A stretch of DNA of 64,000 bases from an uncultured Clostridia bacterium (GTDB lineage: Bacteria; Bacillota; Clostridia; TANB77; CAG-508), in the NCBI GenBank assembly GCA_934178475.1, contig CAKPQH010000001.1, forward strand, positions 68,128 to 132,127. The letters are read 5' to 3'. The notes beneath the pieces were generated by a model. That model was not told the origin of the DNA. It did not search any database and saw only the letters and a program-made list of their open reading frames with translations. Positions 27,638 to 50,143 of this stretch are shown piece after piece. Position numbers and translations under genes: made by a program. The first letter of the stretch is position 1; each line of letters opens with the position of its first letter.

Positions 27638-27641
27638 ATTT

Positions 27642-30600: not shown

Positions 30601-33600
30601 GCATTTTCACCAATAATACCTCCAACATACGAACCACCTTGTATCACATTATCTTTAGCTTCAAAATTTAACTGTGAACACCAATAAGCTTCACCAACAC
30701 AAGCTCCAATGACTGAACCACCAATAATTCTACTATTATTTGTTTTAACAGTATCTAAATTTCTATATGCATATCCAATACAACCTCCAATATAACTACC
30801 TGTACCTTTTACCAAGAAGCCATTGTCTGGTCTAGATTCTCCATCAGTTTGGAAAGCAGAAATATTTTTTAAGTATCCACTCGTATTTTGCAAACGTCCT
30901 ATTAATCCTCCTACAAAACTATGTCCTGATACAGAAGTATATCTTGCTTTCATATTTTTGCACTCTCCTGATAAAGTAGAATATCCACTTAATCCTCCAA
31001 CATAGTCATACCCTGAGCAAGTTATACCAGATAATTCAATATCTTGTATTTTAGCATTTGTAAGTTGAGCAATTGTTCCAATATAACTATAGCCTGACGC
31101 ATTTACTGTAATCTTATTAAAACTAATATTTTTACAGTTAGCTGTTACCAAACTAAATATTCCTGTATTACTAGCTTTAGATGTTACCTCAATATTCTCA
31201 AAAGAAATATCCTGAAGTGCAACAGAACATTCTTTAATTAATCCTGAACGATATTTATTAAGTTTAAAACTATATGTTTGATCATTCGTTCCACCTATTA
31301 TTGGTTTTTCTCTTGCATCATTTACCTTACCAACTAGTCTTCCAACAATAAGTTCTGAATTTTCCAAATGATTATCTGCTGTTTTTTTAGGTCCATTAGT
31401 GTTTAAATTAATATTTTGTAATATTTTATAGTTTTGATATGTGTTCCTATAATCAAAATCATCCCATTTTTTTACACCCTTATAAAATATAATAGAAACT
31501 TTTGTATCAATTACTATATCTTTTTCTGCACCATTATATTTATACCATAACTTATTTATCTTATAAGTATCATAGTAATAATTAGGTGTAACTTCAAGTT
31601 CAACTATAGAGTTCTTTGTTTTATCATTATATGTCTGAGATAATACTGAATTACAAACCATACTTTCAATATAATTTATTTTTTCAAACTCTAATCCTGT
31701 TACTTCAATTTGGTCAGGATTATTAATAGTTAGAGTCAATTTTGCTTTTGGATTATTTTCTTCCTCTTTAGTATCTAAATTATCTATATATTCAGCTTTA
31801 ACTCCTAATATTTTTAAATTTATTATTGAAATTTCAATATTATCTTGCCAAATCATCAATTCTCTGCTTTCCTCATTTTCATATAATAATGGTAAATTAT
31901 CAATAATATATCCATCAGAATTTATAATATTTGATTTATAATAATTGCCTGCGAAATTATTTTTCATAGTTGTATTTTTGCATATTCTAGAATCACCATC
32001 TTTTTCTTTTTTAGCTACACTTGATATTAAAGTTGCCCCATAAGCAGTTTCTGAAGTTGCATCAATTTTACCATTTATTCTCTGTCCACTATATGCATAA
32101 TTGTTAGCTAGGGTAACTTTTATAATATCAGTTGCATTTTTATCATCAGAACTACCTATAATATTATTTACATTACTCATTCCTGTTTTCTTAACATACA
32201 TATTACCTGTATATAAATTATAGATATTTTCAGAAGCTGTTGTGCTATGTCCTCCAATTCCACCTATTGCTCCTGTACTAGTAGCTGTAGAATTTGAAGT
32301 AATATCAATTGTACTATAACATTTTTCTACTTTTCCTTTATTCTTTCCAAAAATTCCTCCTATATAGTTTTGGTATGTTGTTATATTACCCGTTGAATAA
32401 CAATATTTTATATCAACTGTAATTTTAGAATTCTCAGAATCATCTACTCTTCCTAATATTCCTCCAATTCCTAAAGAAGTAATATTATTTCCTAAATTAA
32501 CATTGAAGTTTTGTACATAACAATTTTCTATCGTTTTACTTGAAGAAGTCGCATAACCTACTATTCCCCCCATAGCCATATTAAACTGTTTATTACTATC
32601 ATCTCTCGTGCAATCAAAATACAAACCACTTACAGATGAATTTTTAATAACATTTTGTGTCATTTCACATATAATTCCAGCTACATAACAATTTGCATTA
32701 ATATTTGTTTCATTATATGCACAACTTAAATTAATATTTTTTAAATGTATATTATTTATAATTGCCTTTTTATCCGTCATTCCAATAAAACCTAAATAAT
32801 ATTTAGAATTTTCTGAAAACTCCTTAAATCCATCTTGTGTATAATTCTCAATATTAAGATTTTCTACTTTTCCATTTAATATTTCAAAAAAGGTTTCTTG
32901 AGATAAATTTATGTTTTTTAATATAGGATATCTAGTTACTACCTGTTTTACTCCGTCCTTTTCTTCCTCCACTTGGATTTTTTCTGCTGTAATTTCTCCC
33001 TCAAATATACCTGAAATATTAGGCAACTCTTCAGAATTGTTAAAATCAATATCATTCACTAACCTATAGTTTTGTACTAATCCCTTAACTCCCAATGAAT
33101 TTCCTTCAGCATCTGTTGTATACTGATCTATATTACACCATTCCTCTGCATTTGTTATCTTTTTAACAAACTTCATATTTATTGTTTTTTTACCCAAGGG
33201 CTCATTTCCTCCAAATTTCTGTTCAACCGTTGTATACACTCCATCTACCCATGTTTTATATGAAATTTTAGATATATTATATGTATTATAGTATATTTGT
33301 GGATTGTCTATAATAGCATACAATAATGTTCTCTGATTTCCCTTGCCTTGTCCAATAATATGTTCATCAACAAAATCAATATCAACTCCATGTTCCTCAT
33401 CTATTTCAGAGTTTCTACTATTATATAATGAAATTTCTGCAACATAGATATTTTCATCAGTTACTTTTACATTATTTTGACTTTCATAATCTTCTATAGC
33501 TTTTCTTATCCTTGATTCAGTTCCATTTTCACCTGTTATAACTTCTCCTAATCCAAAAGTTTCTTCAAGTCTATTATTTATACTTTGAATTATTTCATCA

Positions 33601-36600
33601 GTTGTTTCTCCTTCAAGTACCTGCGCTGATAATATATTAATGTTATCAGCTCCTGAATCTGAAATTAAAATCCACTCTTGATTAGGCATACAAGAATTCA
33701 TCTTTACAATTGGATAATAATTGTCTCTAAATTCAAAACCATAATCTCCCAAAAATCCTGTTTGATATTTTGTATCCTTTAATGAAGAACTATTTCCTTG
33801 AATGTCAATTGAATTTGAATAATACGTTTCTGAAAAATAGAAAGAATTAGATATTCTCGAAGCATTAACTTCACTTTCGCTTCCTTTGCTATAAACTTTA
33901 AATATATTAGGTCCATTTTCAACTTCTTTTTTATTTACATTTAAAGACTTATATTTTTCATTACTTTTTTCTCTAGTAACTTCTGTTGCATTTATTGAAT
34001 AAATATTTTCTACATATACATTATTATCTACTCTATAAGCAATATTAGAAGCATATGCATTTTCATTACCTAATGTTTCTATATAATGCAACCTAATTCT
34101 AGAATTATTATAAACATTTTTTATCCCCCTAAATTCACTTTCTGTATTACTTGTTGCTTTATATACTATTCCAGCAAAATATCTTGTATCATTAGATGTA
34201 ATTGCTCCATAAGATTCAATTCCACCATCACCATATATATATCCATTTTGTATTACTCCTGAAGAATATAACACACAACCAGATATATATTGAGTACCAT
34301 ATAATTTTTTAGTTAAATTTATTACAAATTTATCTATTGTTCCATTATTATTATATCCTAATAAACCAACATATTTTCTTATTATCTTTGTACTCTCTTC
34401 TAAATTTAAAATCACATTTGAAATTTCACCATCATTATATAAAAACAACGAATAGATTCCTTTACTTTCTTCTTCCTCAATCTTTTCATTTGCTTCATAA
34501 ACATTTTCATAATCTTTTGCCGCAATATTATTAATATTAAAATTAATAACAAGATTTTGTATCTTAGCTGTATCAGATAACTTATAAAAAACATATGGTG
34601 TAACATCTGATCTTATTCCAGAAGAATATGTAGTTTTACCTAAAGTATTTCCATTGAAATTAATAATTCCATTAAATGAAATTTTTTCATTTCCAAATGT
34701 ATATTGATTAACTGTTTTCGCTTGTGTTAAAGATATATCACTAGAAAAGAAATAATTTCCATCTGGTTGAATATCCATAAATCCAATTTTCTTTTCTTTT
34801 CCATATGTATCTTCGATGCTCTCAATTTCTTCGCATTTTCCTGGTATATATGAAAAATTAATTGAATCCAATGTATAATCCCTATCATACAATTTCACTA
34901 TTAATTCTAATCTAAAATCTGTTTGTTTATTTGGTCTATTTTCTATAACATATTTTATTTTTTCTTCTATTGCTTTATTATTAGCATCTTTTATATCATC
35001 AGTTGTAACTTCTACTTCACAAATATCAGCATCATTTATTATATTTTCTTCTTCTATATGTGATAGTCTAACATAATAATTCTGTAATTTAGTAAATTCT
35101 TGGTTTTCTAATAAACTATATGTAGCATTTAAATTTAAGTCTCCTTGATAAGATTCATAATCATCATTACCATCATATATTTTTATTTGTAAATTTTTTA
35201 TATATAATTCATAATCTGTTGCAATCTCTTCTATTTTTATTTCAGTATTTGTTAAATCTGTCGGAACTATATCTGAATCCGTTGTTTTAGCAATTATTAA
35301 GCCTAAATATCCATCTTTTGTCGCTGTAAAAGTTATATCTTGATTAGTCCAATTCGTACTATTTCCACAATATCCAAGTTCTGAGTGTTCCCATCCATAA
35401 CTATTTGTGCTTCCTGAATTAAATACATATTTAAAATTACTATAATTATTCGAACTGAATTTATATGTCACACCTTTTTTTACTTGAATAAGATTCTTCG
35501 TTCTAACTCTAGTAGTTGTATTTTCAATACCAGAACCTTGTTCTAAAACTCCATCATATAAATTTCTATTTTCTCCTATTTGAGGTAAATAAAATCCTAC
35601 ATATCCATCTTCACCTATTTCAAAATCATATGAGAATTTCTTATATTCAGTTGTATTCAAATTTAAACTTACATCTCTATTTTCGGAATCTTTTATTACA
35701 ATGCTCTTATTTATATTCTTTGAATTTTGTATTTTTACATCAGCATTCTCATTATTTGTCATAGCTTCAAAAGACATTGTTAATTTTGTATCTTTAGGCA
35801 AATTATATTCATTTAAATTATATACATAACTTTGATTCGATCCAAATGTTAACACATTATTTTCTTGGTCATATATTTTCTTATAATCATATCCTTTCTC
35901 TAAAACGTCAAAACATTCAGAATACCAATTATTTTTAGATTTTACATTAACAAGATTTTTTGAAACATAATTTCCGTTTTCATCTTTTTTAGCTTCTTCT
36001 TTCAAACTATCCAAAGTTACTTTCCCTGTTAATCCTTCTGTTTTAAATTCAACATAATTATAATCTTCATCCTCTTTTGTTCTATCTGCCCTACCAATTA
36101 AATATAACGTTTGTATCTTACTTGAATCTTGAGATTCATTATACTTTGAAGCTTTACAAGTTAATTTATAAATTTTATTTTTTTCTAATCCTGTATAATT
36201 AAATTCAAACTGATTTCCTTCTTTATTTAAATATTTTTCATCTTCTCTTACTACTGTTATGCTACCATTTTCCTCTGTTGTTTCTAGTCTTACTGTAACT
36301 AATTTTTCCTTTTCATCTCCAATTGCTCCATCTTTATCATCTATAATAAAATTAAAATTAATAAAATTGTCTGTAGTCACTACATTATTTACACTCATCA
36401 AAGCTGTACTTTTTTTAGTTATTATCTCATTAAAATCATATGATGTATCTATTTTCTTTTCTTTTCCACCTTGACTTATTATAGCTTCCACTAATATAAT
36501 ATATTTTGAATTACTTTCCAAATTAGTTATATCTAATTCAACATTTTCTTCTTTTTTCAAAGAATTCAATTGTTGATGATCAAAAGAAATCTCTTTTTCA

Positions 36601-38591
36601 ACTTCTCCAGTTGAATCATTTCTTAATTTTATCTTAAATGATTTTAAAATTTGTATTAGTAAAGCATCTGTGTCTTCTTTATTAACGACTGATATTACAA
36701 GTCCAGCCTCATTACTTGTTAATTTTTCTTCATCGCTTGAAATATTTAATTTTAATTTTCCCAATAATGCATTTGTCACAAATGTCTGAGTACCAATAAG
36801 TTTATTATATTGCATCCCTTTTCCATCTTCTATATCATAATCCCCATAAACATTTATAACATAAGCTGTTTCAATTTCTAAATCTTGAAAAATAACTTTA
36901 TCTTTATCCTGTTCTAGCATTCCTTGTTTTATTAATTCTCCACCAGCTGTTAAAAGTTCATATCTATAATTTTCTACCCTTACTTTATCTTCATTGCGAA
37001 GTGTAGTATTTACAGTAGTTTTTAAATCATTACTTTTAGCACTAATCTTTACAGTAGGAACAGCTTTTAATGTATTTGTTTCTCCTGTATTGCTATTTAG
37101 CTTCATCTCATCACTATTTGTATCATAAAATTTAATTTTATATGAGTATTTTGTATTAGACTCTAATCCTTCTTCTGTTTGATATGTTATTCTTTCTCCT
37201 CTTAACAATTGCTTTAAATTTAAAGAACTAATTTTGTATTCAATTCCATTGATTTCTATAACTGCTTTTACAACCCCATAAATTGCCTCATCAGTTATAT
37301 CTGATGTAATCCCAAAATTCTTTAGTTCTATTTTATTTTCATAAATCTCTCCATTTTCAAATGTTAAATCTATAGCTTTTATATTTTCTGTTCCTAATGT
37401 AGTAAAACTGCTCTTATAAAATGTAACTTCTATTTTGTCGCCATCTTGATTAATGTATTGATATGTACCTTCAACTTCATATGTAGTATTAGGACATAAT
37501 TTTGTTATATTAAATCTTCCTGAAGAATTAGTAGCTCTTCTAAATGAAACCTTACCATCTTTATAAAATGTAAAAGTAGGGGCCTTGCATATAGCTCCAC
37601 TTGGGTCTTTTATCTCTACCTCATTAAATGCTATATATGTACTTGCTGTAAATCCAGTAGCTTTTACTTCTGGTTTTATCCATTTAACATCTGCATTATT
37701 AGTATTATCTGGTACTTCTATTACAGGAGTCTCAATAATATTCTCTTCTTTATTTTCTTCATCCTTATCTTCTTTGTTATCTTTTGTTGTATCTTCTTTA
37801 ATAATTTCTTTAGGAGGAACTTCAGCTCTGATTATACCTAATGCAATTAATAATTCTTTATATGTATATTGCTTATTATAATCCTCTATAATAACTTGCG
37901 AATTATCATCAACATCTAAAATTTTATTATAAACAAAATAATCTCCATTTAACGAATAATATGTAATAAATTTATTTGTTATGTTCATAATACTATTCAT
38001 TGGTATTTTATATTCACCAGAATATGTTTTTATTTTCATTTCCTTACAGTTAATATATAAGTTTTCAGCATTTTTCATCAAGATATAATCACAAAAATCA
38101 GCTCTTTCAAGAGTTAAAGAATTGTATAAAACACCTGAAGTCAAAGTAAATCCTTTATAACCACTTGTAGTTTCCAAGTCAGATGTAATCAACGATACAT
38201 CTTGACTCAAATTATACAAAGCCAAATTATCATTTACATATATAGGATAATCTAAATTTATATTTTGAGTTTTACTTGCTCCTATGTAATATGACCTCAA
38301 ATTCTTATATACCATATCTTGATCTTTAACTTTCAATGCCTGAATATTTTCATTAACTTGAAAAGTTGCATCTAACAAATTATTTGTAATCTCTTTTCCT
38401 GCAACAGCATATCCATCGTATGTCAGTGTCTCATATGGAATAAATCTTAAATAAATTATATATAAAGCCAATAATATTATTATAAAGAAATTTAATATTG
38501 CCATAAAAAACCAAGCTATATTTCTTTTGTTTTCTTTATTTGTTTTTTCTTCCTTCATATCTTCCTCCACTTTATTTTTTTCTCTTATCAA
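27642..38591 (-). CDS. Giant surface protein (3649 aa): N-terminal TM, FN3/Ig-like modules, GLUG-motif beta-helix repeats, C-terminal TM anchor
   Basis: N-terminal helix IAWFFMAILNFFIIILLALYIIYL. FN3 motifs (TKLCPNTTYEVEGTY, LESNTKYSYKIKFY). At least 17 repeats of xGG(I/V/L)(A/V/I)G spaced 25-35 aa apart (GGIIGENAGYIGNC, GGIAGRAHT, GGVFGYVEQ, GGAFGYSNA, GGIVGRENY, GGIAGYSEG, GGLVGYLKN, GGVIGKVD), spanning about nt 29550-32750. C-terminal helix IGIILFAIVIVSIGIILVVMKRKNIKD. Confidence 0.7.
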   Translation of the reverse strand: MIREKNKVEEDMKEEKTNKENKRNIAWFFMAILNFFIIILLALYIIYLRFIPYETLTYDGYAVAGKEITNNLLDATFQVNENIQALKVKDQDMVYKNLRSYYIGASKTQNINLDYPIYVNDNLALYNLSQDVSLITSDLETTSGYKGFTLTSGVLYNSLTLERADFCDYILMKNAENLYINCKEMKIKTYSGEYKIPMNSIMNITNKFITYYSLNGDYFVYNKILDVDDNSQVIIEDYNKQYTYKELLIALGIIRAEVPPKEIIKEDTTKDNKEDKDEENKEENIIETPVIEVPDNTNNADVKWIKPEVKATGFTASTYIAFNEVEIKDPSGAICKAPTFTFYKDGKVSFRRATNSSGRFNITKLCPNTTYEVEGTYQYINQDGDKIEVTFYKSSFTTLGTENIKAIDLTFENGEIYENKIELKNFGITSDITDEAIYGVVKAVIEINGIEYKISSLNLKQLLRGERITYQTEEGLESNTKYSYKIKFYDTNSDEMKLNSNTGETNTLKAVPTVKISAKSNDLKTTVNTTLRNEDKVRVENYRYELLTAGGELIKQGMLEQDKDKVIFQDLEIETAYVINVYGDYDIEDGKGMQYNKLIGTQTFVTNALLGKLKLNISSDEEKLTSNEAGLVISVVNKEDTDALLIQILKSFKIKLRNDSTGEVEKEISFDHQQLNSLKKEENVELDITNLESNSKYIILVEAIISQGGKEKKIDTSYDFNEIITKKSTALMSVNNVVTTDNFINFNFIIDDKDGAIGDEKEKLVTVRLETTEENGSITVVREDEKYLNKEGNQFEFNYTGLEKNKIYKLTCKASKYNESQDSSKIQTLYLIGRADRTKEDEDYNYVEFKTEGLTGKVTLDSLKEEAKKDENGNYVSKNLVNVKSKNNWYSECFDVLEKGYDYKKIYDQENNVLTFGSNQSYVYNLNEYNLPKDTKLTMSFEAMTNNENADVKIQNSKNINKSIVIKDSENRDVSLNLNTTEYKKFSYDFEIGEDGYVGFYLPQIGENRNLYDGVLEQGSGIENTTTRVRTKNLIQVKKGVTYKFSSNNYSNFKYVFNSGSTNSYGWEHSELGYCGNSTNWTNQDITFTATKDGYLGLIIAKTTDSDIVPTDLTNTEIKIEEIATDYELYIKNLQIKIYDGNDDYESYQGDLNLNATYSLLENQEFTKLQNYYVRLSHIEEENIINDADICEVEVTTDDIKDANNKAIEEKIKYVIENRPNKQTDFRLELIVKLYDRDYTLDSINFSYIPGKCEEIESIEDTYGKEKKIGFMDIQPDGNYFFSSDISLTQAKTVNQYTFGNEKISFNGIINFNGNTLGKTTYSSGIRSDVTPYVFYKLSDTAKIQNLVINFNINNIAAKDYENVYEANEKIEEEESKGIYSLFLYNDGEISNVILNLEESTKIIRKYVGLLGYNNNGTIDKFVINLTKKLYGTQYISGCVLYSSGVIQNGYIYGDGGIESYGAITSNDTRYFAGIVYKATSNTESEFRGIKNVYNNSRIRLHYIETLGNENAYASNIAYRVDNNVYVENIYSINATEVTREKSNEKYKSLNVNKKEVENGPNIFKVYSKGSESEVNASRISNSFYFSETYYSNSIDIQGNSSSLKDTKYQTGFLGDYGFEFRDNYYPIVKMNSCMPNQEWILISDSGADNINILSAQVLEGETTDEIIQSINNRLEETFGLGEVITGENGTESRIRKAIEDYESQNNVKVTDENIYVAEISLYNSRNSEIDEEHGVDIDFVDEHIIGQGKGNQRTLLYAIIDNPQIYYNTYNISKISYKTWVDGVYTTVEQKFGGNEPLGKKTINMKFVKKITNAEEWCNIDQYTTDAEGNSLGVKGLVQNYRLVNDIDFNNSEELPNISGIFEGEITAEKIQVEEEKDGVKQVVTRYPILKNINLSQETFFEILNGKVENLNIENYTQDGFKEFSENSKYYLGFIGMTDKKAIINNIHLKNINLSCAYNETNINANCYVAGIICEMTQNVIKNSSVSGLYFDCTRDDSNKQFNMAMGGIVGYATSSSKTIENCYVQNFNVNLGNNITSLGIGGILGRVDDSENSKITVDIKYCYSTGNITTYQNYIGGIFGKNKGKVEKCYSTIDITSNSTATSTGAIGGIGGHSTTASENIYNLYTGNMYVKKTGMSNVNNIIGSSDDKNATDIIKVTLANNYAYSGQRINGKIDATSETAYGATLISSVAKKEKDGDSRICKNTTMKNNFAGNYYKSNIINSDGYIIDNLPLLYENEESRELMIWQDNIEISIINLKILGVKAEYIDNLDTKEEENNPKAKLTLTINNPDQIEVTGLEFEKINYIESMVCNSVLSQTYNDKTKNSIVELEVTPNYYYDTYKINKLWYKYNGAEKDIVIDTKVSIIFYKGVKKWDDFDYRNTYQNYKILQNINLNTNGPKKTADNHLENSELIVGRLVGKVNDAREKPIIGGTNDQTYSFKLNKYRSGLIKECSVALQDISFENIEVTSKASNTGIFSLVTANCKNISFNKITVNASGYSYIGTIAQLTNAKIQDIELSGITCSGYDYVGGLSGYSTLSGECKNMKARYTSVSGHSFVGGLIGRLQNTSGYLKNISAFQTDGESRPDNGFLVKGTGSYIGGCIGYAYRNLDTVKTNNSRIIGGSVIGACVGEAYWCSQLNFEAKDNVIQGGSYVGGIIGENAGYIGNCTSINNTITGTSTRTGGVFGSLRYSEIPTNGKIISRQNVIKGAGQVGGIAGRAHTYYSSYPIRNIESIENKVYSKTSKGALQDYAGGVFGYVEQANSVPIDGVVVKDNKVEGASYVGGAFGYSNAIIRNVKVTGNNDATQVDVSGINYVGGIVGRENYSYYNSSSSYYSINQAYASNMYIKATGSNIGGIAGYSEGTVYGTYIDNSNIRGGKGSKYIGGIVGYYRASIKNQAQYISSKNFYLKNSACVNTNIEFESGSEIGGIAGVFEYGNLENCYVVNCKINPTSSAAKTTCVGGLVGYLKNKNTQTNQYISKIRNNYVINYSAKNTFIRGDNFVGGVIGKVDRLIESDTRRNTENFQDSYPEDAYGSNLIITDILASGNEVSMGIGNYMVGAGEDEETGKSYGNQNLNMVNTYIYLGNKINNYRIDVMDKYGIDEQNVDKYQIVDYNWIKNASNYKNKLSFGTSYIIDSNISNNCLPILIDANKWSSLGITQVAPEFPIEEYFDNTSRAKKFSLMSMPINRNKMYAINTSVKEQFPKVYVYTSDVDKINVEFEYVNENTAYSICTEDGNTLYTGTIKDRVNTFKFDFKQSIKIKFSNGMVCYEEDFDINDIRNKLYMQDDEYFYLLNNKLYSNKNSFDGEFANLYEGKVISTDGKIYNVYDVNTEIGEYAQFEKLEESIPLIEYEYKGKKIETYYHCTKVIEDSENEIIKDKQMYIKNKSMYILDGKLDIYGNTAIIDSYNDKQYEAALGVDGKIYNFLNKIKYPLNFKNKDIIQMTSNIKNNTNIVLVYYSSGKVVGFNYITGEEVYDNGEGKVDLFTYIANSFKKENLLYDIENINYEDEKELIAKLEKISIDEAMSNIEDDNKTGTVSENNGENSINNTESNISQTNKDIQYTVAYDTSQDKYVVYSSEELFDTKTEKVISENEKIQSNANLENYYGNLSVSKIELNDIGIILFAIVIVSIGIILVVMKRKNIKD

Positions 38592-39507
38592 TTATATAAC
38601 TACTTCCATTAACAGATTTTACTGCATGTTTTACTTGAGCTGCAGCATCTCCAATCTCTAATATATTAGCAAATCTATTTTTTTCGGCCATAACAACTGC
38701 TATTGATATTGCAGTCAATGGAAAGTTTTCTATAATTCCTTTTCTATTTTTTACTTGAAGGTATCCTTTTTCCACATCAACTTCATTGAAAAAACTAAGT
38801 ACTCTTTCGTCAAAATTAGCAATAATTCTTTGACATAATTTTTCTATTTTATCATTATCAGCAGAAATTATTGCTATAAAATCATCTCCTCCTATATGTC
38901 CTACAAATCCATTTTCAATGCTAGCGTCTTTATGTATAGCATCGACAATCACATTCGCAGTAAATTGTATTATTTGATCTCCCTTTAAAAATCCATATAC
39001 ATCATTGTATGATTTAAAATTATCTAAATCTATATACAATACAGCAAAATCTTTATTTTGCCCAAGCCTTTTTTTCATTTCTGCTTGTATTTGTACATTT
39101 CCAGGTAAACCAGTTAAAGGACTTATCCTTCTGTTAATTGTAAGAAGTCTAGTTAAATTTTTTATAGTATAATATAAATACCCCTCATCTACTGGCTTAC
39201 GTACAAAATACTCTATTGACTCATTTAATATTCTTAACCTATGTTCTCTTGTTCCATCAGAAGACACTACAATAACAGGTGTAATACTATTATCTTCATC
39301 TTGTCTAATTCTTTTACACACCTTTAGCACATCCATGTCTATTGCATCTTCATTTATTATTATTAATGAAGGTATATTTTTTAATGCTTCATCTATTTTT
39401 TCAGTAGTAACACTTATGAATTTATAATCCTTATCATTTCTAAATAATTCTTTAAATATCTTTACAGATGTTGCATCATCGTCTATTATATAAACCTCAT
39501 TTACCAT
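38572..39507 (-). CDS. Response-regulator receiver domain fused to a GGDEF diguanylate cyclase domain (GGDDF variant)
   Basis: REC-like N-terminus (IIDDD, LIIINED, PVIVVSS, VRKP). GGDEF core DLDNFKSYNDVYG ... GHIGGDDFIAI. No RxxD I-site. The 3' end overlaps the start of the 3649-aa gene by 20 nt. Confidence 0.8.
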   Translation of the reverse strand: MVNEVYIIDDDATSVKIFKELFRNDKDYKFISVTTEKIDEALKNIPSLIIINEDAIDMDVLKVCKRIRQDEDNSITPVIVVSSDGTREHRLRILNESIEYFVRKPVDEGYLYYTIKNLTRLLTINRRISPLTGLPGNVQIQAEMKKRLGQNKDFAVLYIDLDNFKSYNDVYGFLKGDQIIQFTANVIVDAIHKDASIENGFVGHIGGDDFIAIISADNDKIEKLCQRIIANFDERVLSFFNEVDVEKGYLQVKNRKGIIENFPLTAISIAVVMAEKNRFANILEIGDAAAQVKHAVKSVNGSSYIIDKRKK

Positions 39508-39521
39508 TTTTTTCTCCTTCG

Positions 39522-40466
39522 TTATTTTAATTCATATCTTACTTTTCTTGTAGTAGGTATTCCCTCATCATCATATGCTGTGATAATAACTCTATTTTCA
39601 CCATTTTTAAGTTTTAAATTTTTAGTATATTTCGTACTATTTATATTTTCTTCAACTGTTAATGTTTCCCCATTAAACGTTATTTCAACTTTAGATATTC
39701 CTTTTTCATCTGAAATCTCTATTACAAAATCCACTTTATTGGTTGTAACTTCAACAGATGGTCCTTCTTTCATTTCCATCTCTTTTGTTTTCTTTGTTTC
39801 AACACCATTTACATCAACAGCTTTTACAGTCAATGAATGCTTTCCTGCAACTTTTATTATGTCTATTGATAATTCAGCTGATGTATCATTAATCATTTCT
39901 TGTTTTGATTTCTCATTATCCCAATAATATTCAATATAATCAATCTTACTACCAGATGTAGCTGTAACTTTTATGATTCCTTCATCTTCTATTGCTTCTA
40001 AATTTATACTTGGTCCAGTCTCCATTGTTTTTTGATATGTAGATTCTTGTCTTTTTGTATCTTTTGCAGTTATAACTATATTATTAGAACTTTCTGTTAA
40101 CTTAACATCTATTTCTTTTTCTAATTCATTATTTCCTGAAACTGTTTTGCTTGAACCATTTACACTATATGTAATTTCCTTTATTCCTACTGTACTAGAT
40201 ACTCTGATCGTTATATTTTCTGCATCTACTCTCTCTATATGTATATTTGGTTTAAGAACATTAGAGTCCGATTTTCCTGTTTGTAAAACAGCATATGTAC
40301 CATTTGCCGTAATACATATTCCAAATACAATAATTACGATTGCAAAAAATCTAACAATTGAGCTAGTTCCTATATGTTTATTATCATAATTATTAACTTT
40401 CTTTGACTTTGTTTTCTCTTTTACTTGCCTTTCTGTAGATAATATTTGATTCATACAATTCACCAT
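39522..40466 (-). CDS. Membrane-anchored protein with three tandem Ig-like repeats of about 75 aa (314 aa)
   Basis: N-terminal TM FFAIVIIVFGICITANG. Repeats IERVDAENITIRVSS..., ...LEAIEDEGIIKVTATSG..., VEVTTNKVDFVIEISDEKGISKVEITFNGE. Confidence 0.5.
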   Translation of the reverse strand: MVNCMNQILSTERQVKEKTKSKKVNNYDNKHIGTSSIVRFFAIVIIVFGICITANGTYAVLQTGKSDSNVLKPNIHIERVDAENITIRVSSTVGIKEITYSVNGSSKTVSGNNELEKEIDVKLTESSNNIVITAKDTKRQESTYQKTMETGPSINLEAIEDEGIIKVTATSGSKIDYIEYYWDNEKSKQEMINDTSAELSIDIIKVAGKHSLTVKAVDVNGVETKKTKEMEMKEGPSVEVTTNKVDFVIEISDEKGISKVEITFNGETLTVEENINSTKYTKNLKLKNGENRVIITAYDDEGIPTTRKVRYELK

Positions 40467-40572
40467 CCTATAATTCTACAAAAAATTATATCATAACGTA
40501 TTTTTATTGTAAACATTTTTAGCAAAAAATAAAGGTAGAAATTTATTACATTTCTACCTTTATTTCATATTT

Positions 40573-43500
40573 TTATAAAACAAATTTTTTAATTAATATA
40601 ATTCCTCCTGCAAGCATTATAAGTGATATACCTCCAACTCCAACATATGGCATAACATTTTCTTTTAAACCTGTTGATATTGCAAGTAATACTGGTGCGT
40701 AATCCATATCGTCTTCTTCTATAATTTTATTATCTGGTGTTGAATCTCTATCTGGTACATCATATTCGTTATAATCTTCTGATATTTCAGCATAATTTGT
40801 TTTTACGCCTAAGTTATTAGCACCATTTATCCATCTAAAAGTAACTTCTACAGTTGCACTCTCTCCTGGATTTAATAGTGTTCCCTTTAATGCTCTAGTT
40901 GAAATAACATTATTTCCTTCATCTACCCATTCTTTATTATCTTCTTCATAGAATTTTAATCCTTCAGGTACGTAATCTGTTATTTCCATAGCATATCCAG
41001 GTATATCTCCCTCATTAGTTATTTTAATAATATATACAAATTTTACTATCGTTGAATCTAATTTTTTTCTATTAATTTCAACTTTAGGAATCATATCTGT
41101 TGTATTATTTCCTGTATTTCCTGTTTGAGTTACAGTTTCATTTCCATCTTCTATTACATGTACTTCTGAAACATATTTTAATAATGCTAAGTCAAATTCT
41201 CTAACAACTATTCTTTCAAAATCGTCATCATCTTCTTGTCCAGGAATATATCCATCTGTCTTATCAGTGTCTTCTCCACCTTCATAATTTGGTCTATCAT
41301 CTTGATCTAAAACATCATCTGTTAAATTATCAGGTTTTGAATCTCTATCTTTAGGAACTACAGTTCCATCCTTTCCTTGATATTCCGTTATTTGTGCAAT
41401 ATTTGTTATGTTCTTCATTGGCAAAGCATTTTTATTTACTTTACATAGAATTTGAACATCTTTATAATCAAGTCCAGAACCTTTTCCATCATCATTTGCA
41501 GAATCAAATGCTTTTAATATATTTTTCTTATCTAATTCTGATGATAAATAATCCGTTGAAACAGTCTTTCCATCTGCACCAACTGTCCATCCATAATTAT
41601 CATTAAATTCACATTCCACATAATCTAAATATGTTGGTAAATGATCTGTTATTTTAGATGCGTATGCATCTATATCTCCTTCATTATATACTCTTATTGT
41701 ATATAATACATAACTTTCTCTAGCTACTGTTAATGAATCTTTAGGGTGTTTGTATATAGCAGTAGTTGCTGTTTTATCTTTTAAATGTGTTGTATCTACA
41801 CTTGGAGCTCTTGTATAAGCAGTACTAGTTGTTCCGTCAACTGTTACATATTCTCCCTCTTCAATATTTGCATCACTACTTATAGCTGCTATAAATTTTC
41901 TAAGTGCAATATCATATTCTTCTAATATAACATTATCATAGTCTTCATCATCTTCATATTTTTTCCATTCATCAGGATTTGAATCTCTATCATCATCTGA
42001 ATCTTTAGTAATTGCTGCTTCATTTCTTATTATTCCAATAGTTGGGTCTGTTGCAACTACTTTTAGCATTATTTTAACTTCTTTATATGATAGTCCAGAA
42101 CCCTTTCCATCATCATTTGTTGCGTCAAATGCTTTTATTTCATTTGATGTTGATTTAGCTTTTGATAAATAATCTGTCTTTACCATTTCTATTCTATTTG
42201 TCGTAGAATTTGTTGTTTTTATTGTCCATCCTTGACTCAAGTTAAACTCTATTGCTTTTTTGTCTTCATCTGTTAATGTTTTTGTACATGCACTATAATC
42301 AATATTTCCAGTTGCATCAATAGTAATTCCATTATCATATATATATTCCAATCCATTTGGAATATCTTCTGTTATTTCCTCTGCATAACCATCAAGTTCT
42401 GCTTCATTATATACTCTTAAAGTATATGTTACATATTCTCCTGTTTTAACTTTTAATGGATCTTTACTTAATGTATAATCTGCTGTTGTTCTAGAACCAT
42501 CTTTTAATTTAGAAGAATCAATTTTTGTAATAGTTCTTCCTCTAGTTGCATCTCCATTTATTTCTGATATATATTTTACAAGTTTCAAGTCAAAAGTCTT
42601 TTTATCAGCTGCATTCACATTTAATTCAAATGGTTCATCTTTCTTTGTTATTTCTACTAACAATTGTTCCGCTGTCGCATCTGTTGTACGTTCATCTGTC
42701 ATCCATAAAGTTTTTTCTGTAATTTGATATGTACCATTTAAAGATATTTTAACTCCACTTATAGCAGTAGATGGAACTGTAACGTAAAATCCTGTTGTTT
42801 CACCCACAAGTGTTGAATAATCTGTTACACTTCTTGCATTTCCATTTTCATCTGAAAGATACCATCCTGAAATTGCATTATTATCTTGATCTTTTACCAC
42901 TAAATTATTTTCTAATATATATGGAAGTTCCCCAACTTTTTCTAATTTGATTGGTCCAACAACATATTTAGAATTTACTTTCTTCATATTTGTTGAAGCA
43001 TTAACACTTAAAGGAACTTTTGTACTTTCATTTGCATAAGCATTATTGTCTCCTGGATTTGCCGCATTAGCAGAATCTATTAAATAATCATATAACAAAC
43101 ATGCTTGTTCTTGGTACATTTGTCCAACAGCACCAGGTATCCCTGTTGTTGTCGAATATTCAATATTTCCTGTTGTACTATTATAATAATATGATGCCAA
43201 TGGTTTATATTCTCTATTATCTACACCAATAGAATAGTTTAACCACCATTTCATATCAGATGCATTTTTTCCTGTATAATAGTCATAATTTGCTCCATTA
43301 ACATAATACCACAATGCTGCTTGTTGTACAGATTCAACTAATTCAGCAGGTAAACTACATTCTATTGTATTTCCATCTTTGTCTATATAATAATATCCTT
43401 TTCCATTTTGAGAATAACCACGCATATTATCTTTGCGTAACCATTTAGGATATTTCTCCGCATCTACTTTTTCTTCCAATAACTCACTGCACTTATCTCC

Positions 43501-44193
43501 TTTATATCTCTCTTCTGTACCTTCCTTATATTTAATGCCATTACTTTCATCCTCTATAAAATTCACAAGATCGTCATACTCTTTAGTTGTATAAGTATAA
43601 ACTGTTTTAGACAACATATAGTCTAAATTGCTATTGCTTGGATAATTATATATTTTTGTCTTCTTTATTCCTACTCGTCCAAGTAAAGCTTTTATATCTT
43701 CTTCATTTTTATTTTTATCTGTTCCTTCTACATAAGCATTATCCAAAAGCCATAATATTTGTCCATAATATTTACTATTATTAACCTTATTATAATTAGT
43801 TACTGCCAATTTTTTTATAATATCATTGTCTTTTACCATATTATATGATCTGTTATATGTAGCTGGTGTATTTATATTTCCTGATTCTTCTTTTATTTCT
43901 CCTGTATCATCAATTTGATAATTCCATGTATAAGAAGTTGGAGCATCTAAACAATAAATATTTTTTAGTGGCATATTAGTAGATGTATCCATTATTTGGT
44001 ATATATTGTGACCATTACTTACTGCATATGCACCCTTTTTCACAAAATCTGTACCATCATATACATATCTTGCATAGCTTAAACATAATGTTTTCGTTGT
44101 TTCCCCCGTTGCAAGTACAATATTTTCTCCAATTCCAATTATTAATACTAATAATGTTATAATTAAACCAAAGATAATTTTCTTTACTTTCAT
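40573..44193 (-). CDS. Surface protein (1206 aa) with three DUF11-like (conserved repeat / prealbumin-like) domains and a C-terminal TM anchor
   Basis: Signal peptide. Three repeats of about 190 aa, each beginning D(L/I)xL(V/R/L)K(Y/F), containing TYT(L/I)RVYNEG..YA..ITD.LP.GLxY, and ending DRDS.PD. The KAFDxxNDDGKGSGLxYK segment is duplicated. C-terminus ...AISTGLKENVMPYVGVGGISLIMLAGGIILIKKFVL. Confidence 0.6.
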   Translation of the reverse strand: MKVKKIIFGLIITLLVLIIGIGENIVLATGETTKTLCLSYARYVYDGTDFVKKGAYAVSNGHNIYQIMDTSTNMPLKNIYCLDAPTSYTWNYQIDDTGEIKEESGNINTPATYNRSYNMVKDNDIIKKLAVTNYNKVNNSKYYGQILWLLDNAYVEGTDKNKNEEDIKALLGRVGIKKTKIYNYPSNSNLDYMLSKTVYTYTTKEYDDLVNFIEDESNGIKYKEGTEERYKGDKCSELLEEKVDAEKYPKWLRKDNMRGYSQNGKGYYYIDKDGNTIECSLPAELVESVQQAALWYYVNGANYDYYTGKNASDMKWWLNYSIGVDNREYKPLASYYYNSTTGNIEYSTTTGIPGAVGQMYQEQACLLYDYLIDSANAANPGDNNAYANESTKVPLSVNASTNMKKVNSKYVVGPIKLEKVGELPYILENNLVVKDQDNNAISGWYLSDENGNARSVTDYSTLVGETTGFYVTVPSTAISGVKISLNGTYQITEKTLWMTDERTTDATAEQLLVEITKKDEPFELNVNAADKKTFDLKLVKYISEINGDATRGRTITKIDSSKLKDGSRTTADYTLSKDPLKVKTGEYVTYTLRVYNEAELDGYAEEITEDIPNGLEYIYDNGITIDATGNIDYSACTKTLTDEDKKAIEFNLSQGWTIKTTNSTTNRIEMVKTDYLSKAKSTSNEIKAFDATNDDGKGSGLSYKEVKIMLKVVATDPTIGIIRNEAAITKDSDDDRDSNPDEWKKYEDDEDYDNVILEEYDIALRKFIAAISSDANIEEGEYVTVDGTTSTAYTRAPSVDTTHLKDKTATTAIYKHPKDSLTVARESYVLYTIRVYNEGDIDAYASKITDHLPTYLDYVECEFNDNYGWTVGADGKTVSTDYLSSELDKKNILKAFDSANDDGKGSGLDYKDVQILCKVNKNALPMKNITNIAQITEYQGKDGTVVPKDRDSKPDNLTDDVLDQDDRPNYEGGEDTDKTDGYIPGQEDDDDFERIVVREFDLALLKYVSEVHVIEDGNETVTQTGNTGNNTTDMIPKVEINRKKLDSTIVKFVYIIKITNEGDIPGYAMEITDYVPEGLKFYEEDNKEWVDEGNNVISTRALKGTLLNPGESATVEVTFRWINGANNLGVKTNYAEISEDYNEYDVPDRDSTPDNKIIEEDDMDYAPVLLAISTGLKENVMPYVGVGGISLIMLAGGIILIKKFVL

Positions 44194-44450
44194 CTTATAC
44201 CTTCCTTTTAATACATTTAATCTATTTTATTTTACTACTTCATATAAGCTTAAGTCAATATACCTTTCTATTCTATATTTTCCAATTTTCAGAAAACCTT
44301 ACGGATAATTAACTTTAAGCCTACATTACAATTATATTACATTTTCATATCAAAATCAAGAAAAAAATACTAATTATTTAAGTTTTTAAGCATATTTTCA
44401 ATATTGGTATTATATATTTTTAAATAGATAACTTTTGAAAGGATTAATTT

Positions 44451-45710
44451 ATGAAATATAAAAAGTTTTATTTGATTATTTTATGTTTATTTTTGTTATT
44501 CTATAGCATTATTCCTATTTCTTATGCCGATGATTTAAATTCAGAAGAAAATATCTCTTCAAATTATTACAATACAGAAAATGTCTCCAAAAATTTAAAT
44601 GCAATTCCAACAATAAACGCTCGTTTTGCTGCTATATATGATAGAGCATCTGGCACACTTCTATATGATAAAAATGCAAACGAAAAATCCAAAATGGCCT
44701 CTACTACCAAAATTATGACATCATTAGTAGTCATTGAAAACTCCAATCTTTCAGATATTGTAACAATATCAAAAAAATCTGCAGGAACCGGAGGTTCAAG
44801 ATTAGGGTTATCCACAAATAATACTATATCTGTGGAAAACCTTCTTTATGGTTTAATGCTTTGTTCTGGTAATGATGCAGCTGTTGCTTTAGCTGAACAT
44901 GTTGGAGGAAATATAGAAAGCTTTGCTGAATTAATGAATAAAAAAGCTATTGAACTTAACCTTACAAATACACATTTCGTAACTCCTCATGGATTAGATC
45001 AAGATGACCACTATACAACCGCATATGAACTTGCAAAACTAACAGATTACGCTTTAAAAAATGAAATATTTGCTAAAATAGTAAACACAAAGAATTATAC
45101 AATCATGATAAATAATACTCCTAAACAAATACATAATACAAATGAACTCCTTGGCAATTTAGACGGTGTTTATGGTGTGAAAACAGGATTTACTAATGGA
45201 GCTAATAGATGTTTAGTAACTTCTTGTAAAAGAGAAAATTTAGACATTATTTGTGTTGTTTTAGGATGTGATACAAAAAAAGATAGAACACAAGATAGTG
45301 TAGAACTTATAAATTATACATTCAATAATTTTACATTAAAAAATATAGAAGAAATAATAGATAACGATTTCAACTCTTGGAATAAAAACCATACAAACAA
45401 TTTTACAATTAATAAAGGAATTCCCAATCATATTGATTTATACTTAGACAAATCCAATATTCCATACTCTAGTTTAGCTATAAACAATGTTGATTTAAAC
45501 AATATTACTTCAACTATAAATTTCACATCTAGCTTTAACGCTCCGCTAGAAAAGAATTCAATAATTGGGACTTCTACAATAAAAATAAATGAAAAGGAAC
45601 TCTTCAAAATTAATATTTTAAACAAAAACACAATTAGGAAAAAATACATTTTTGATTATTTACATTCTTTTTTATATAGATATCCTGACATTATAAAAAC
45701 TACATTTTAA
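44451..45710 (+). CDS. D-alanyl-D-alanine carboxypeptidase (S11 family, low-molecular-weight PBP)
   Basis: Signal peptide plus SxxK (ASTTK), SxN (SGND) and KTG (KTGFT) motifs. Confidence 0.85.
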   Translation: MKYKKFYLIILCLFLLFYSIIPISYADDLNSEENISSNYYNTENVSKNLNAIPTINARFAAIYDRASGTLLYDKNANEKSKMASTTKIMTSLVVIENSNLSDIVTISKKSAGTGGSRLGLSTNNTISVENLLYGLMLCSGNDAAVALAEHVGGNIESFAELMNKKAIELNLTNTHFVTPHGLDQDDHYTTAYELAKLTDYALKNEIFAKIVNTKNYTIMINNTPKQIHNTNELLGNLDGVYGVKTGFTNGANRCLVTSCKRENLDIICVVLGCDTKKDRTQDSVELINYTFNNFTLKNIEEIIDNDFNSWNKNHTNNFTINKGIPNHIDLYLDKSNIPYSSLAINNVDLNNITSTINFTSSFNAPLEKNSIIGTSTIKINEKELFKINILNKNTIRKKYIFDYLHSFLYRYPDIIKTTF

Positions 45711-48403: not shown

Positions 48404-50143
48404 CTATATATCATACTTTTCTCTTGCTTTATAAGATGTATGTAATAAATGATGTGCCTTTTCGCATCCATAGTTTCCCTTCATATATTCTTTATAAAGT
48501 TTATCTATAACAGGATTTTCATGAGACTTTCTTATTGTAGATTTTTCATCAATATCATATAACACATTAGCTCTTAATCCTCTGACATCAACTTCTCTTC
48601 TTACCTTTGAAGATTTAATTGGTTGTCCTCCACCATTTACACATCCTCCAGGGCAAGCCATAATTTCAACAAATTGATAATCTGCCTTTCCTGATTTTAT
48701 TTCTTCCATTATCTTATTGGCGTTTTTAAGACTAGAAGCAACTACAATTTTTATCTCTTTTCCATCAATATTTATAGTAGCTCTTTTTATTCCTTGTTGT
48801 CCTCTAACATCTTCATAATTAATCTCTTTTATATCTTCTCCAGTTAACACATCTGCTGCTGTTCTAAGTGCCGCTTCCATAACTCCTCCTGTCGTTCCAA
48901 ATATAACTGCAGCTCCAGTAGCTTCTCCCATAGGATCGTCAAACTCTGTATCTTCCAAATCTACAAAATTTATATTTGCTTGTTTTATCATTCTAGCAAG
49001 TTCTCTAGTCGTTATTACAGCATCTACATCTTCAACCATCTCTTTTCTTTGTCTCTCAAATTTCTTAGCAATACATGGCATTACTGAAACAACAAAAATT
49101 TTCTTTGGATCTATATTATTTTTTTCTGCATAATATGATTTGATAATAGCTCCAAACATTTCATGAGGCGATTTGCAACTTGATAAATGATCTGTAAGTT
49201 CTGGATAATACATTTCAGCATATTTTACCCACGCAGGGCAACAAGAAGTTATCATTGGTAAAGTTCCACCATTTTTAACCCTCTCTATAAATTCTGTTGC
49301 TTCTTCAACAATTGTTAAATCTGCTCCTGTATTTGTATCAAAAACTTTATCAAATCCAATTTTTCTAAGTGCTGTTACCATTTTTCCTTCTGCATTTGTT
49401 CCAATTGGCATTCCAAATTCTTCCCCAATTGCAACTCTAACTGCCGGAGCAGTTTGAACAACAACATAAGTTTCAGGATCTCTTAATTTTCTCCATACTT
49501 CTTTTGTAGAATCTTTTTCTTTTAAAGCTCCTACCGGACAAGCTTCAATACATTGTCCACACAAAGTACAATTTACATTATTTAAACTTGCATCACAAGC
49601 TGTACTAATTCTTGAATTAAATCCTCTTTCTGTAACACTTATTGCACCAATATTTTGAATATTTTTACAAGCTCCTATACATCTTTTACATAATATACAC
49701 TTACTTGTATCTCTTACAATTGATGGAGAAAGTTCATCTATTGTAGCTGCAACTTTTTCCCCTTCAAATTCTATATCTGTAATACCAAATTTATCTGCTA
49801 AAGCTTGTAGCTCACAATTACTATTTCTAACACATGTTAAGCAATCTCTATTATGTGCTGATAATATTAAATCTAAAGTAATTCTTCTTGCATCATTTAT
49901 TTTAGGTGTATTAGTTCTAACTACCATTCCATCTTCTACCTTAGTTATACAAGAAGGTGAAAATCCACGTCTTCCCTCTATTTCAACTATACACATTCTA
50001 CAATCTCCATTTTCACTTATTTCTTTTAAGAAACATAGTGTTGGGATATCTATATTTGCTTTTCTTGCTGCCTCAAGCACTGTTGAACCTTTTGACACTT
50101 CTACATCTATACCATCAATATTAACTTTTAACATTTCTGCCAT
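48404..50143 (-). CDS. hydA: [FeFe] hydrogenase catalytic subunit (HydA-type, multi-cluster)
   Basis: N-terminal 2Fe-2S and 4Fe-4S cysteine motifs. H-cluster motifs TSCCPAW, MPCIAKKFE and EIMACPGGCVNGGGQP. Confidence 0.9.
   Translation of the reverse strand: MAEMLKVNIDGIDVEVSKGSTVLEAARKANIDIPTLCFLKEISENGDCRMCIVEIEGRRGFSPSCITKVEDGMVVRTNTPKINDARRITLDLILSAHNRDCLTCVRNSNCELQALADKFGITDIEFEGEKVAATIDELSPSIVRDTSKCILCKRCIGACKNIQNIGAISVTERGFNSRISTACDASLNNVNCTLCGQCIEACPVGALKEKDSTKEVWRKLRDPETYVVVQTAPAVRVAIGEEFGMPIGTNAEGKMVTALRKIGFDKVFDTNTGADLTIVEEATEFIERVKNGGTLPMITSCCPAWVKYAEMYYPELTDHLSSCKSPHEMFGAIIKSYYAEKNNIDPKKIFVVSVMPCIAKKFERQRKEMVEDVDAVITTRELARMIKQANINFVDLEDTEFDDPMGEATGAAVIFGTTGGVMEAALRTAADVLTGEDIKEINYEDVRGQQGIKRATINIDGKEIKIVVASSLKNANKIMEEIKSGKADYQFVEIMACPGGCVNGGGQPIKSSKVRREVDVRGLRANVLYDIDEKSTIRKSHENPVIDKLYKEYMKGNYGCEKAHHLLHTSYKAREKYDI

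Follow-up and report, generated by a model that had tools for sequence, protein, structure and literature searches.

Response regulators that join a receiver (REC) domain to a GGDEF-type cyclase include DgcR of Leptospira biflexa (6zxb, 6zxm) and WspR of Pseudomonas (3bre, 3i5a), two-domain proteins of about 300 amino acids (aa) in which helix alpha5 of the receiver runs straight into the GGDEF domain, and which have a phosphorylatable aspartate, a GGEEF motif and an RxxD inhibitory site (I-site). PleD of Caulobacter crescentus (1w25, 2v0n; about 454 aa) has the architecture REC-REC-GGDEF, is activated by phosphorylation of D53, also carries GGEEF and an I-site, and itself holds a pseudo-receiver that is used for dimerisation (PMC12632262). 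Here we describe a gene from an uncultured Clostridia bacterium (Bacillota; TANB77; CAG-508) that shares much with these proteins and departs from them at two decisive positions. It lies on the minus strand at 38572-39507 of a 64,000-nucleotide (nt) stretch of DNA (assembly GCA_934178475.1, contig CAKPQH010000001.1, forward-strand positions 68,128 to 132,127; hereafter the window), and its product, which we call REC-GGDDF, resembles DgcR and WspR in its two domains, its length of 311 aa, the direct run of alpha5 into the second domain and its guanosine triphosphate (GTP)- and Mg-binding residues. Both proteins are among its top structural matches, but sequence identity is only 16-18%, and REC-GGDDF has Asn52 in place of the phosphorylatable aspartate, GGDDF in place of GGEEF, and no I-site. 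PleD is its best sequence match in the PDB, with receiver and GGDEF domain both aligning, but differs in its second receiver, its D53-dependent activation, its GGEEF motif and its I-site. Measured against the DgcR/WspR type, REC-GGDDF lacks two defining features, the acceptor aspartate and GG[D/E]EF, and has the others. Residue numbers throughout are those of the 311-aa protein, and nucleotide coordinates are window positions.

Taken singly, both departures have been seen before. Aspartate-less receivers (ALRs) were described by Maule et al. (PMC4395418), who found asparagine in 16% of acceptor substitutions and an enrichment of such receivers among those linked to GGDEF domains, so that the ALR-GGDEF architecture class is already known. 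RitR of Streptococcus pneumoniae, for example, is an aspartate-less receiver that, like REC-GGDDF, has asparagine at the acceptor position of a recognisable receiver fold, but its output is DNA-binding and its other pocket residues are lost, whereas in REC-GGDDF the DD pair, Ser and Lys-Pro are all retained. The GGDDF motif is shared with GSU1937 of Geobacter sulfurreducens, a Hypr GGDEF protein and the only one for which activity with GGDDF has been published (PMC8835794). Its N-terminal part is a transmembrane sensor, its base-selecting position is held by Ser and its product is cyclic GMP-AMP (cGAMP), whereas REC-GGDDF has a receiver and Asp177. Aspartate-less receiver-GGDEF fusions and working GGDDF domains are therefore already on record, from a single description or from surveys. 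The novelty lies in the fixed combination of an Asn-type receiver with GGDDF in a conserved gene family, together with the size of the HxGGDDF clade.

The identity of the gene is secure. Translation of 38572-39507 on the plus strand is riddled with stops, and it is the minus strand that gives the 311-aa protein, from an ATG with AAGGAG ahead of it to a TAA at 38572-38574; its N-terminus, M[VLI]NE[VI]YIIDDD, is kept in orthologues. The receiver comprises residues 5-112 (39172-39495, minus strand), as delimited by Pfam Response_reg (PF00072; 40 bits against a cutoff of 30.2), by alignment with PleD and by AlphaFold secondary structure. The GGDEF-type nucleotide cyclase domain comprises residues 130-307 (38587-39120, minus strand), as delimited by Pfam GGDEF (PF00990; residues 130-236, 61.9 bits with the cutoff at 23.8, only positions 5-114 of the 161-position model being matched), by alignment with the T. 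maritima diguanylate cyclase and by conservation in the family. An NCBIfam scan of the protein gave no equivalog above cutoff; the best match was the PleD model (NF007135), at 67.7 bits far below the family cutoff of 474, and the REC-REC-GGDEF architecture is absent. An AlphaFold model with 19 orthologues in the input (predicted local distance difference test, pLDDT, 76.6) shows a (beta-alpha)5 receiver and, beyond an ill-defined linker (108-135), an alpha/beta domain that resembles GGDEF. Foldseek against the PDB returned WspR (3bre), PleD and DgcR (6zxb) as top matches with E-values of 1e-13 to 1e-15; receiver structures match the model at a template modelling (TM) score of about 0.8 and isolated GGDEF structures at 0.7-0.77, both normalised to the target. 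Because Pfam matches and predicted fold agree, 38572-39507 is a genuine REC-GGDEF gene, far beyond chance, in a window of about 26% G+C with a strong strand skew. An earlier, sequence-only reading of the window had placed a REC-GGDEF open reading frame (ORF) at exactly these positions and called it PleD/WspR-style; the single-receiver WspR/DgcR architectural type stands, and the PleD domain count does not.

The phospho-acceptor position of the receiver is held by asparagine. PleD D53 aligns with Asn52 without gaps on either side, and the spacing around Asn52 is that of PleD, with six residues from P46 to N52 and seven from N52 to D59 (M58-D59). Its codon, AAT at 39352-39354 on the minus strand, falls at the end of strand beta3 (residues 48-52 in the AlphaFold model), with Glu53 and Asp54 next. 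The resulting INED is present in all of the 120 closest protein clusters. Since Asn52 sits at the acceptor position and INED is invariant in these clusters, REC-GGDDF has an aspartate-less (pseudo-)receiver as defined in PMC4395418. The remainder of the pocket is retained: D9/D10/D11 after beta1, S82/S83 after beta4 and K104-P105 after beta5 are each invariant in the same 120 clusters. The sequence-only reading had correctly pointed out this acidic DDD pocket and the conserved S/T and K, but it took NED for the acceptor region of a phosphorylatable response regulator, and that part of the description falls with the gap-free PleD alignment, the position at the beta3 end, the AAT codon and the invariance of INED.

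The same substitution bears on two further points raised in that reading. The locus had been said to hold no cognate kinase, and indeed none occurs in the conserved neighbourhood of any of 38 related species-level loci, all of them from metagenome-assembled genomes (MAGs) of uncultured gut Clostridia (rabbit, human, goat, sheep). With the acceptor aspartate absent, however, a missing kinase is expected and not puzzling, and activation by beryllofluoride (BeF3), which had been proposed for an assay, is unlikely to work. The histidine kinase/response regulator pair at 58343-60533 is, as had been stated, a separate OmpR-type system (HAMP-HisKA-HATPase and REC-Trans_reg_C). A further pattern was seen around the acceptor position (receiver residues 52-54, window 39346-39354) in 150 distant representatives: Asp or Glu is found at +2 in 17 of the 20 that have Asn at the acceptor and in 8 of the 93 that have Asp there, counts that are uncorrected for shared ancestry.

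In the cyclase domain, the signature motif does read GGDDF, as noted earlier (residues 206-210; GGA GGA GAT GAT TTT at 38878-38892, minus strand), with His204 ahead of it. Against the active-site pattern [G/A/S]G[D/E]E[F/Y] it departs at one place, the catalytic-base position, where Asp209 is found. The substrate and Mg residues that had been assigned to DLDNFKSYNDVYG (residues 160-172) were recovered by alignment with PleD and with the T. maritima cyclase, in which D160 is the Mg ligand (PleD D327) and N168, together with D177 just beyond, is guanine-binding (PleD N335 and D344). K293 and K297 would match the phosphate-binding K442 and R446 of PleD by a spacing argument (Asp+6, Lys+4), the printed alignments ending before this region. 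These five residues are nearly invariant, being kept in 137-144 of about 145 distant representatives. The hallmark Ser of Hypr cGAMP synthases is absent at Asp177, a position at which 137 of 145 representatives have Asp and the other 8 have Asn. The earlier statement that there is no RxxD I-site, which in product-inhibited cyclases stands five residues ahead of the GG motif, also proved right: no R..D occurs in residues 192-205 of REC-GGDDF, the site is found in 0 of 120 relatives, and the T. maritima cyclase alignment agrees. Compared with canonical GGDEF domains, some 12 extra residues are present in the linker that joins helix alpha3 to the next hairpin.

The unusual motif is far from private to this genome. 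When 1.84 billion representatives were searched with a profile, 1,437 clusters (50% identity) reached E<=1e-30. Every one of the 120 close clusters has H[IV]GGDD[FY], and among the best 150 of the 1,437, H[IV/L/E]GGDD[F/Y] is present in 144 of the 145 representatives that align over the motif. GGDDF is thus the normal, selected state and the hallmark of a large clade, not a local degeneration, and a reading of it as a lesion finds no support. The clade members whose origin could be traced belong to MAGs of Chloroflexota and Actinomycetota, in addition to Firmicutes-like sequences. The acceptor aspartate is normal in 93 of the 119 members with an aligned receiver; as most GGDDF-clade proteins retain it, the ancestral state was a phosphorylatable REC-GGDDF enzyme, and the clade of the window lost the aspartate later. 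A full-text literature search for GGDDF gave no paper on this clade, whose members are named in the sources only as 'response regulator' or 'diguanylate cyclase (GGDEF)-like protein'.

Whether GGDDF variants are active had been listed among the checks to be made, and the literature answers in both directions. Work from the Hammond laboratory (PMC8835794) describes the fourth residue of GGDEF as the cross-dimer catalytic base, at which Asp preserves the needed functionality, and presents GSU1937 as the first active example, its GGDDF domain having produced cyclic dinucleotides in vivo. A negative case is also noted there, that of PA3258, a GGDDF-EAL protein for which no cyclase phenotype was seen.

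The gene surroundings of the wider clade vary. Three phosphorylatable members lie, respectively, in a receiver cluster by an MshEN-type pilus ATPase, by a SPOR protein and ribF, and by rpe and rib genes. The distant Asn-type REC-GGDDF relatives P0124 and P0128 (loci L056-L059) directly follow ksgA/rsmA and a 3D or G5-3D protein, and their loci adjoin cell-wall genes (Amidase_3, LytR_cpsA_psr, FtsX/PcsB-like), which hints at a link of this ksgA-context subgroup to the cell envelope. The idea that the wider GGDDF clade shares one gene context was considered and rejected, as the three Asp-type contexts differ from each other and the two distant Asn-type members stand after ksgA.

Among the close relatives, the gene is under strong constraint. 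Across the 38 species-level genomes, REC-GGDDF is 67-74% identical, compared with 27-39% for the upstream and 36-51% for the downstream neighbour. The ratio of nonsynonymous to synonymous substitution rates (dN/dS) of REC-GGDDF is 0.04, 0.08 and 0.11 for three relatives, in each comparison below that of both flanking genes. Two of the 38 orthologues are disrupted, one by an in-frame stop at codon 143 (L028, 4465-5382) and one by a frameshift near residue 132 (L038, 1316-2231), through real loss or assembly error. The sequence-only reading had named a pseudogene in related strains as a result that would speak against it; for the family the pseudogene hypothesis is rejected, with 36 of 38 orthologues intact, two MAG copies disrupted and dN/dS at 0.04-0.11. 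By these measures the REC-GGDDF gene family is clearly functional.

The most constant neighbour of the gene is a single-pass membrane protein with Ig-like domains of the Big_7 type, 314 aa long and encoded 14 nt from the REC-GGDDF start (39522-40466, minus strand). Its second ATG, at 40454 (MNQILS...), is the probable start, because MNQILS[VT]E is conserved as the first eight residues in 33 orthologues; over its whole length the protein is 27-39% identical. A Big_7-type single-pass protein of 250-355 aa lies directly upstream of REC-GGDDF in all 36 loci, of the 38, in which the ORF was called, the two genes being separated by -4 to 135 nt, and in 31 of the 36 by no more than 60 nt. The sequence of its cytoplasmic tail runs MNQILSTERQVKEKTKSKK..., and this short cytoplasmic N-terminus may be a reasonable candidate contact for the pseudo-receiver. 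Further upstream lies the gene of a 1206-aa DUF11-repeat surface protein (40573-44193, minus strand), which comes before the Big_7 gene in roughly every second related locus. The earlier description of REC-GGDDF as embedded between giant surface genes is thus correct for the downstream side, where a giant gene follows, and incorrect for the upstream side, where the Big_7 protein separates it from the DUF11 protein.

The downstream giant gene (27642-38558, minus strand) encodes 3638 aa from ATG 38558, with an N-terminal membrane anchor and a GLUG motif. The junction on the minus strand is TAA-agtggaggaagat-ATG, or in context ...AAA AAA TAA agtGGAGGaagat ATG AAG GAA..., so that a 13-nt spacer, agtGGAGGaagat (38559-38571, minus strand), separates the REC-GGDDF stop from the giant-gene ATG. 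The spacer holds the ribosome-binding site of the giant gene, a strong GGAGG preceding the in-frame ATG. Gene calls in relatives place the start likewise, 13 nt past the stop in a 97% relative and 9 nt past it in the 82% and 79% relatives, and in two related loci (L041/L042) the giant protein shows 83% identity along 3313 aa. The two genes do not overlap. A 20-nt overlap with a 3649-aa gene had been proposed earlier, and is an artefact of a mechanical ORF start at TTG 38591.

With no stop/start overlap, there is no evidence for the strict translational coupling that had been drawn from it; the other half of that proposal, a single transcript for REC-GGDDF and the giant gene, is plausible given the 13-nt spacer and the absence of a predicted terminator. 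A 16-bp hairpin with a T run (40565-40527) follows the DUF11 gene and is the sole terminator-like hairpin in 27000-45000; it lies between the DUF11 and Big_7 genes. After it comes TTTACA-17-TGaTATAAT (40513-40485), the best promoter-like site of the region, and from this site to the end of the giant gene no terminator is predicted. These intergenic signals (40485-40565, minus strand) probably mark the start of a Big_7/REC-GGDDF/giant transcription unit, but they are suggestive only, since they are consensus matches in AT-rich DNA and the count of such promoter-like sites is not above chance.

The giant gene is the first gene of a lineage-specific block of 24.6 kilobases (kb) at 13989-38558 (minus strand), which lies between REC-GGDDF and a gene that we call g684, starts 13 nt after the REC-GGDDF stop and has a terminator (13975-13953) at its 3' end. 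Besides the giant gene (3638 aa) it holds genes for 1879-aa and 518-aa proteins, a c-like protein of 84 aa, a 265-aa protein, F1 alpha-, gamma- and beta-like proteins, and proteins of 86, 182 and 248 aa. Synteny with relatives is kept in the outer flanks, where a MurJ-like gene (8261-9820) and rplM/rpsI (10014-10871) lie on one side and, on the other, the DUF11 gene and a D-Ala-D-Ala carboxypeptidase gene that is transcribed divergently. Because these flanks are syntenic, and REC-GGDDF and g684 are adjacent in about 28 relatives, 13989-38558 is an insertion confined to this sub-lineage. The giant gene stands behind REC-GGDDF only in relatives with 79-97% identity and is not in the neighbourhood of the 38 genomes at 67-74%; the pairing of cyclase and giant protein is, on this distribution, a recent arrangement and not a conserved one.

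The conserved downstream neighbour, g684 (11816-13828, minus strand), encodes 670 aa from ATG 13828. A g684 homologue of 520-700 aa lies directly downstream of REC-GGDDF in about 28 related loci, whereas in the window it is 24.6 kb away, behind the terminator at 13975-13953 and with its own promoter-like site, inside which its mechanical TTG start at 13870 falls. The protein has an all-helical N-terminal domain of about 400 aa (AlphaFold pLDDT 90, all-helical), and the last third of the chain, in which Asp, Glu and Phe abound, is extremely acidic. Its approximately 315 detectable relatives are all unannotated and limited to this clade; one of them, P0410, is 100% identical over 670 aa. No Pfam or NCBIfam match was found in g684 itself or in 15 orthologues scanned singly, no meaningful match came from searching the PDB with a profile, the best Foldseek hit against the PDB had an E-value of 0.28 and none was significant, and no homology to the giant protein was found. 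A role of g684 as a known effector of cyclic di-guanosine monophosphate (c-di-GMP) was rejected on these Pfam, NCBIfam, PDB-profile and structural results.

Our favoured explanation, to which we assign a probability of roughly 0.5, is that REC-GGDDF is a phosphorylation-independent, partner-regulated GGDEF-type cyclase that makes c-di-GMP, is not product-inhibited, and in this lineage is co-expressed with the giant gene. The enzyme would form c-di-GMP from GTP independently of phosphorylation, with Asp209 replacing the cross-dimer catalytic Glu in the GGDDF active site, and would be free of product inhibition because it has no I-site. We infer that the pseudo-receiver serves as a dimerisation and regulatory module that answers a protein partner and not a histidine kinase. 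The best candidate for this partner would be the putatively co-transcribed Big_7 Ig-domain membrane protein 14 nt upstream, with its conserved short cytoplasmic N-terminus. In this sub-lineage, the giant gene would probably be read from the REC-GGDDF transcript, as the 24.6-kb block was inserted directly behind REC-GGDDF.

Several observations count against this explanation. The cyclase activity of the clade is read from sequence and from the activity of one other GGDDF domain, and that sole GGDDF enzyme shown to be active belongs to another lineage and was assayed as an engineered fusion, while another GGDDF protein, PA3258, had no cyclase phenotype (PMC8835794). At 62 bits, the Pfam match to GGDEF is a weak one that extends over only two thirds of the model. 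The proposed partner role of the Big_7 protein comes from synteny, and Asn-type relatives at greater distance are found in different surroundings, behind ksgA. The window also lacks the remainder of a c-di-GMP circuit. No PilZ, EAL, HD-GYP or MshEN domain was found by Pfam in essentially all window ORFs of at least 100 aa and two small ORFs of the ATPase set, so that the search for PilZ or GGDEF/EAL receptor motifs in cluster proteins suggested earlier came out empty among the window proteins scanned, and the window showed neither an effector nor a phosphodiesterase for c-di-GMP. Likewise, no c-di-GMP riboswitch was found by Rfam at the gathering threshold over the whole window or at E<=1 over 11000-46000. 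Finally, the DD, S and K of the phosphorylation pocket are still conserved and Asp54 covaries with Asn52, which leaves room for residual phospho-chemistry.

Some of these points can be turned into an explanation of their own, in which the GGDDF domain is inactive and the protein, as a sensor or adaptor that binds GTP or nucleotides, serves to organise others such as g684 or the membrane partner, with no second messenger being made. The departure from GG[D/E]EF at the catalytic base, the lack of phenotype of PA3258, the partial Pfam GGDEF match and the empty search for effector, phosphodiesterase and riboswitch would all fit, and a pseudo-receiver with conserved protein neighbours does suggest protein-protein functions. 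We nonetheless regard an inactive adaptor as unlikely, as its substrate and metal residues are nearly invariant over more than 100 divergent clusters, whereas degenerate receptor-type GGDEF domains normally lose them, and c-di-GMP would have no I-site to bind to; moreover, Asp keeps the carboxylate, and one GGDDF domain is active in vivo. An orphan response regulator whose kinase is encoded elsewhere, with the receiver phosphorylated at Asp54 or after deamidation of Asn52 to Asp, would come close to what the sequence-only reading assumed and would account for the invariance of D9/D10/D11, S82 and K104-P105 and for the excess of Asp or Glu at +2 beside an Asn acceptor, and there is a report, cited in PMC4395418, of Asn-to-Asp deamidation in a receiver. 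The gap-free alignment on both flanks nevertheless puts Asn52 on the acceptor position, with beta3 ending at residue 52 and Asp54 in the loop, the covariation is uncorrected for shared ancestry, and the conserved neighbourhoods of the 38 loci are free of kinases. To our knowledge there is no precedent for an acceptor at D+2, and we consider residual phosphorylation quite improbable.

It is also conceivable that the HxGGDDF clade is active but makes something other than c-di-GMP, such as a linear pppGpG-type dinucleotide or another cyclic nucleotide, since a shorter catalytic base and the clade-specific His204 would alter the cross-dimer geometry. The invariance of Asp at motif position 4 and of His at -2 across the clade agrees with such a change, as do the longer alpha3-hairpin linker, the Pfam match that stops after position 114 of 161 and the function of the fourth residue as cross-dimer base (PMC8835794). 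Against it, N168 and D177 are canonical guanine-recognising residues, D177 is not the Ser of the cGAMP-making Hypr enzymes, the cyclic dinucleotides that GSU1937 made with its GGDDF domain were ordinary ones, and nothing points positively to an alternative; a different product therefore seems very unlikely to us. Hardly tenable is the explanation that the sequence-only reading itself had offered, a phosphorylation-activated PleD/WspR-type cyclase coupled through a 20-nt overlap to the giant surface protein as its dedicated regulator. Its architecture and fold do fit, and the giant gene is indeed tightly behind in the window and in relatives of at least 79% identity, but the acceptor aspartate is absent, the overlap vanishes with the GGAGG-preceded ATG as start, the 38 genomes that keep REC-GGDDF at 67-74% have no giant gene in the neighbourhood, and the giant/ATPase block occurs elsewhere without a visible GGDEF gene nearby. 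The phosphorylation-independent, partner-regulated cyclase thus remains the explanation that we prefer.

The inserted block carries a gene set that resembles an F-type ATPase. The c-like protein (19970-20224, minus strand; 84 aa) matches Pfam ATP-synt_C at 34.1 bits against a cutoff of 24 and has a GxGxGxG helix and an RNPE loop; its helix 2 contains no Asp or Glu, in the window as in the homologues of two other loci (L054, L055), and the protein is therefore without the usual ion-binding carboxylate. The F1 alpha-like protein is short (446 aa) and below atpA cutoffs, the beta-like protein has 459 aa, and the gamma-like protein (262 aa) scores 69 bits against a cutoff of 194. The 265-aa protein is b/delta-like, with a transmembrane segment and a coiled coil, the 182-aa protein is a polytopic membrane protein, and no a-subunit was detected in the block. 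The same gene set, headed by giant genes, is found in related metagenomic contigs, at L054 (1-15084) and L055 (2083-21332), with no GGDEF gene in view. The alpha-like and beta-like proteins also match NCBIfam models for mycoplasma gliding (MMOB1660/1670) and for the MSC_0618/0619 F1-like ATPase, clusters which according to the literature have no equivalent outside mycoplasmas. One might imagine that pseudo-receiver REC-GGDDF and the Big_7 protein form a kinase-free transmembrane signalling pair whose nucleotide, made by a GGDDF chemistry shared with more than 1,400 protein clusters, controls the newly attached giant/ATPase machine with its carboxylate-free c-subunit, as the walled-bacterium counterpart of the mycoplasma 'F1-like X0', but we regard this as a speculation with little chance of being correct.

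Two further features of the window are recorded here for completeness. A full-length OLE (ornate large extremophilic) RNA is present at 1243-1839 (minus strand, 319 bits), and the next ORF downstream of it (667-1182) has a weak CNNM-like membrane-domain match. In addition, a three-gene set at 48404-52541 (minus strand) resembles an electron-bifurcating [FeFe] hydrogenase, with an Fe_hyd_lg_C large subunit, a Nuo51-like flavoprotein and a 2Fe-2S thioredoxin-like subunit.

These results have consequences for annotation as well as for the biology of the family. PleD-type response regulator is the wrong label for 38572-39507, the start of the giant gene should move to ATG 38558, and a search for a kinase should not be motivated by the REC-GGDDF gene. 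More broadly, the c-di-GMP field takes GG[D/E]EF as a requirement for activity, with one GGDDF enzyme shown to work, and here GGDDF with a His at -2 is fixed and strongly selected in more than 1,400 clusters (50% identity) from several phyla. If the proteins of this clade are active, motif-based censuses that score GGDDF as degenerate undercount cyclases. A receiver that is barred from phosphorylation at the usual site, yet keeps its pocket otherwise and is encoded by a gene fixed beside that of a membrane protein, offers a tractable case for the study of pseudo-receiver switching.

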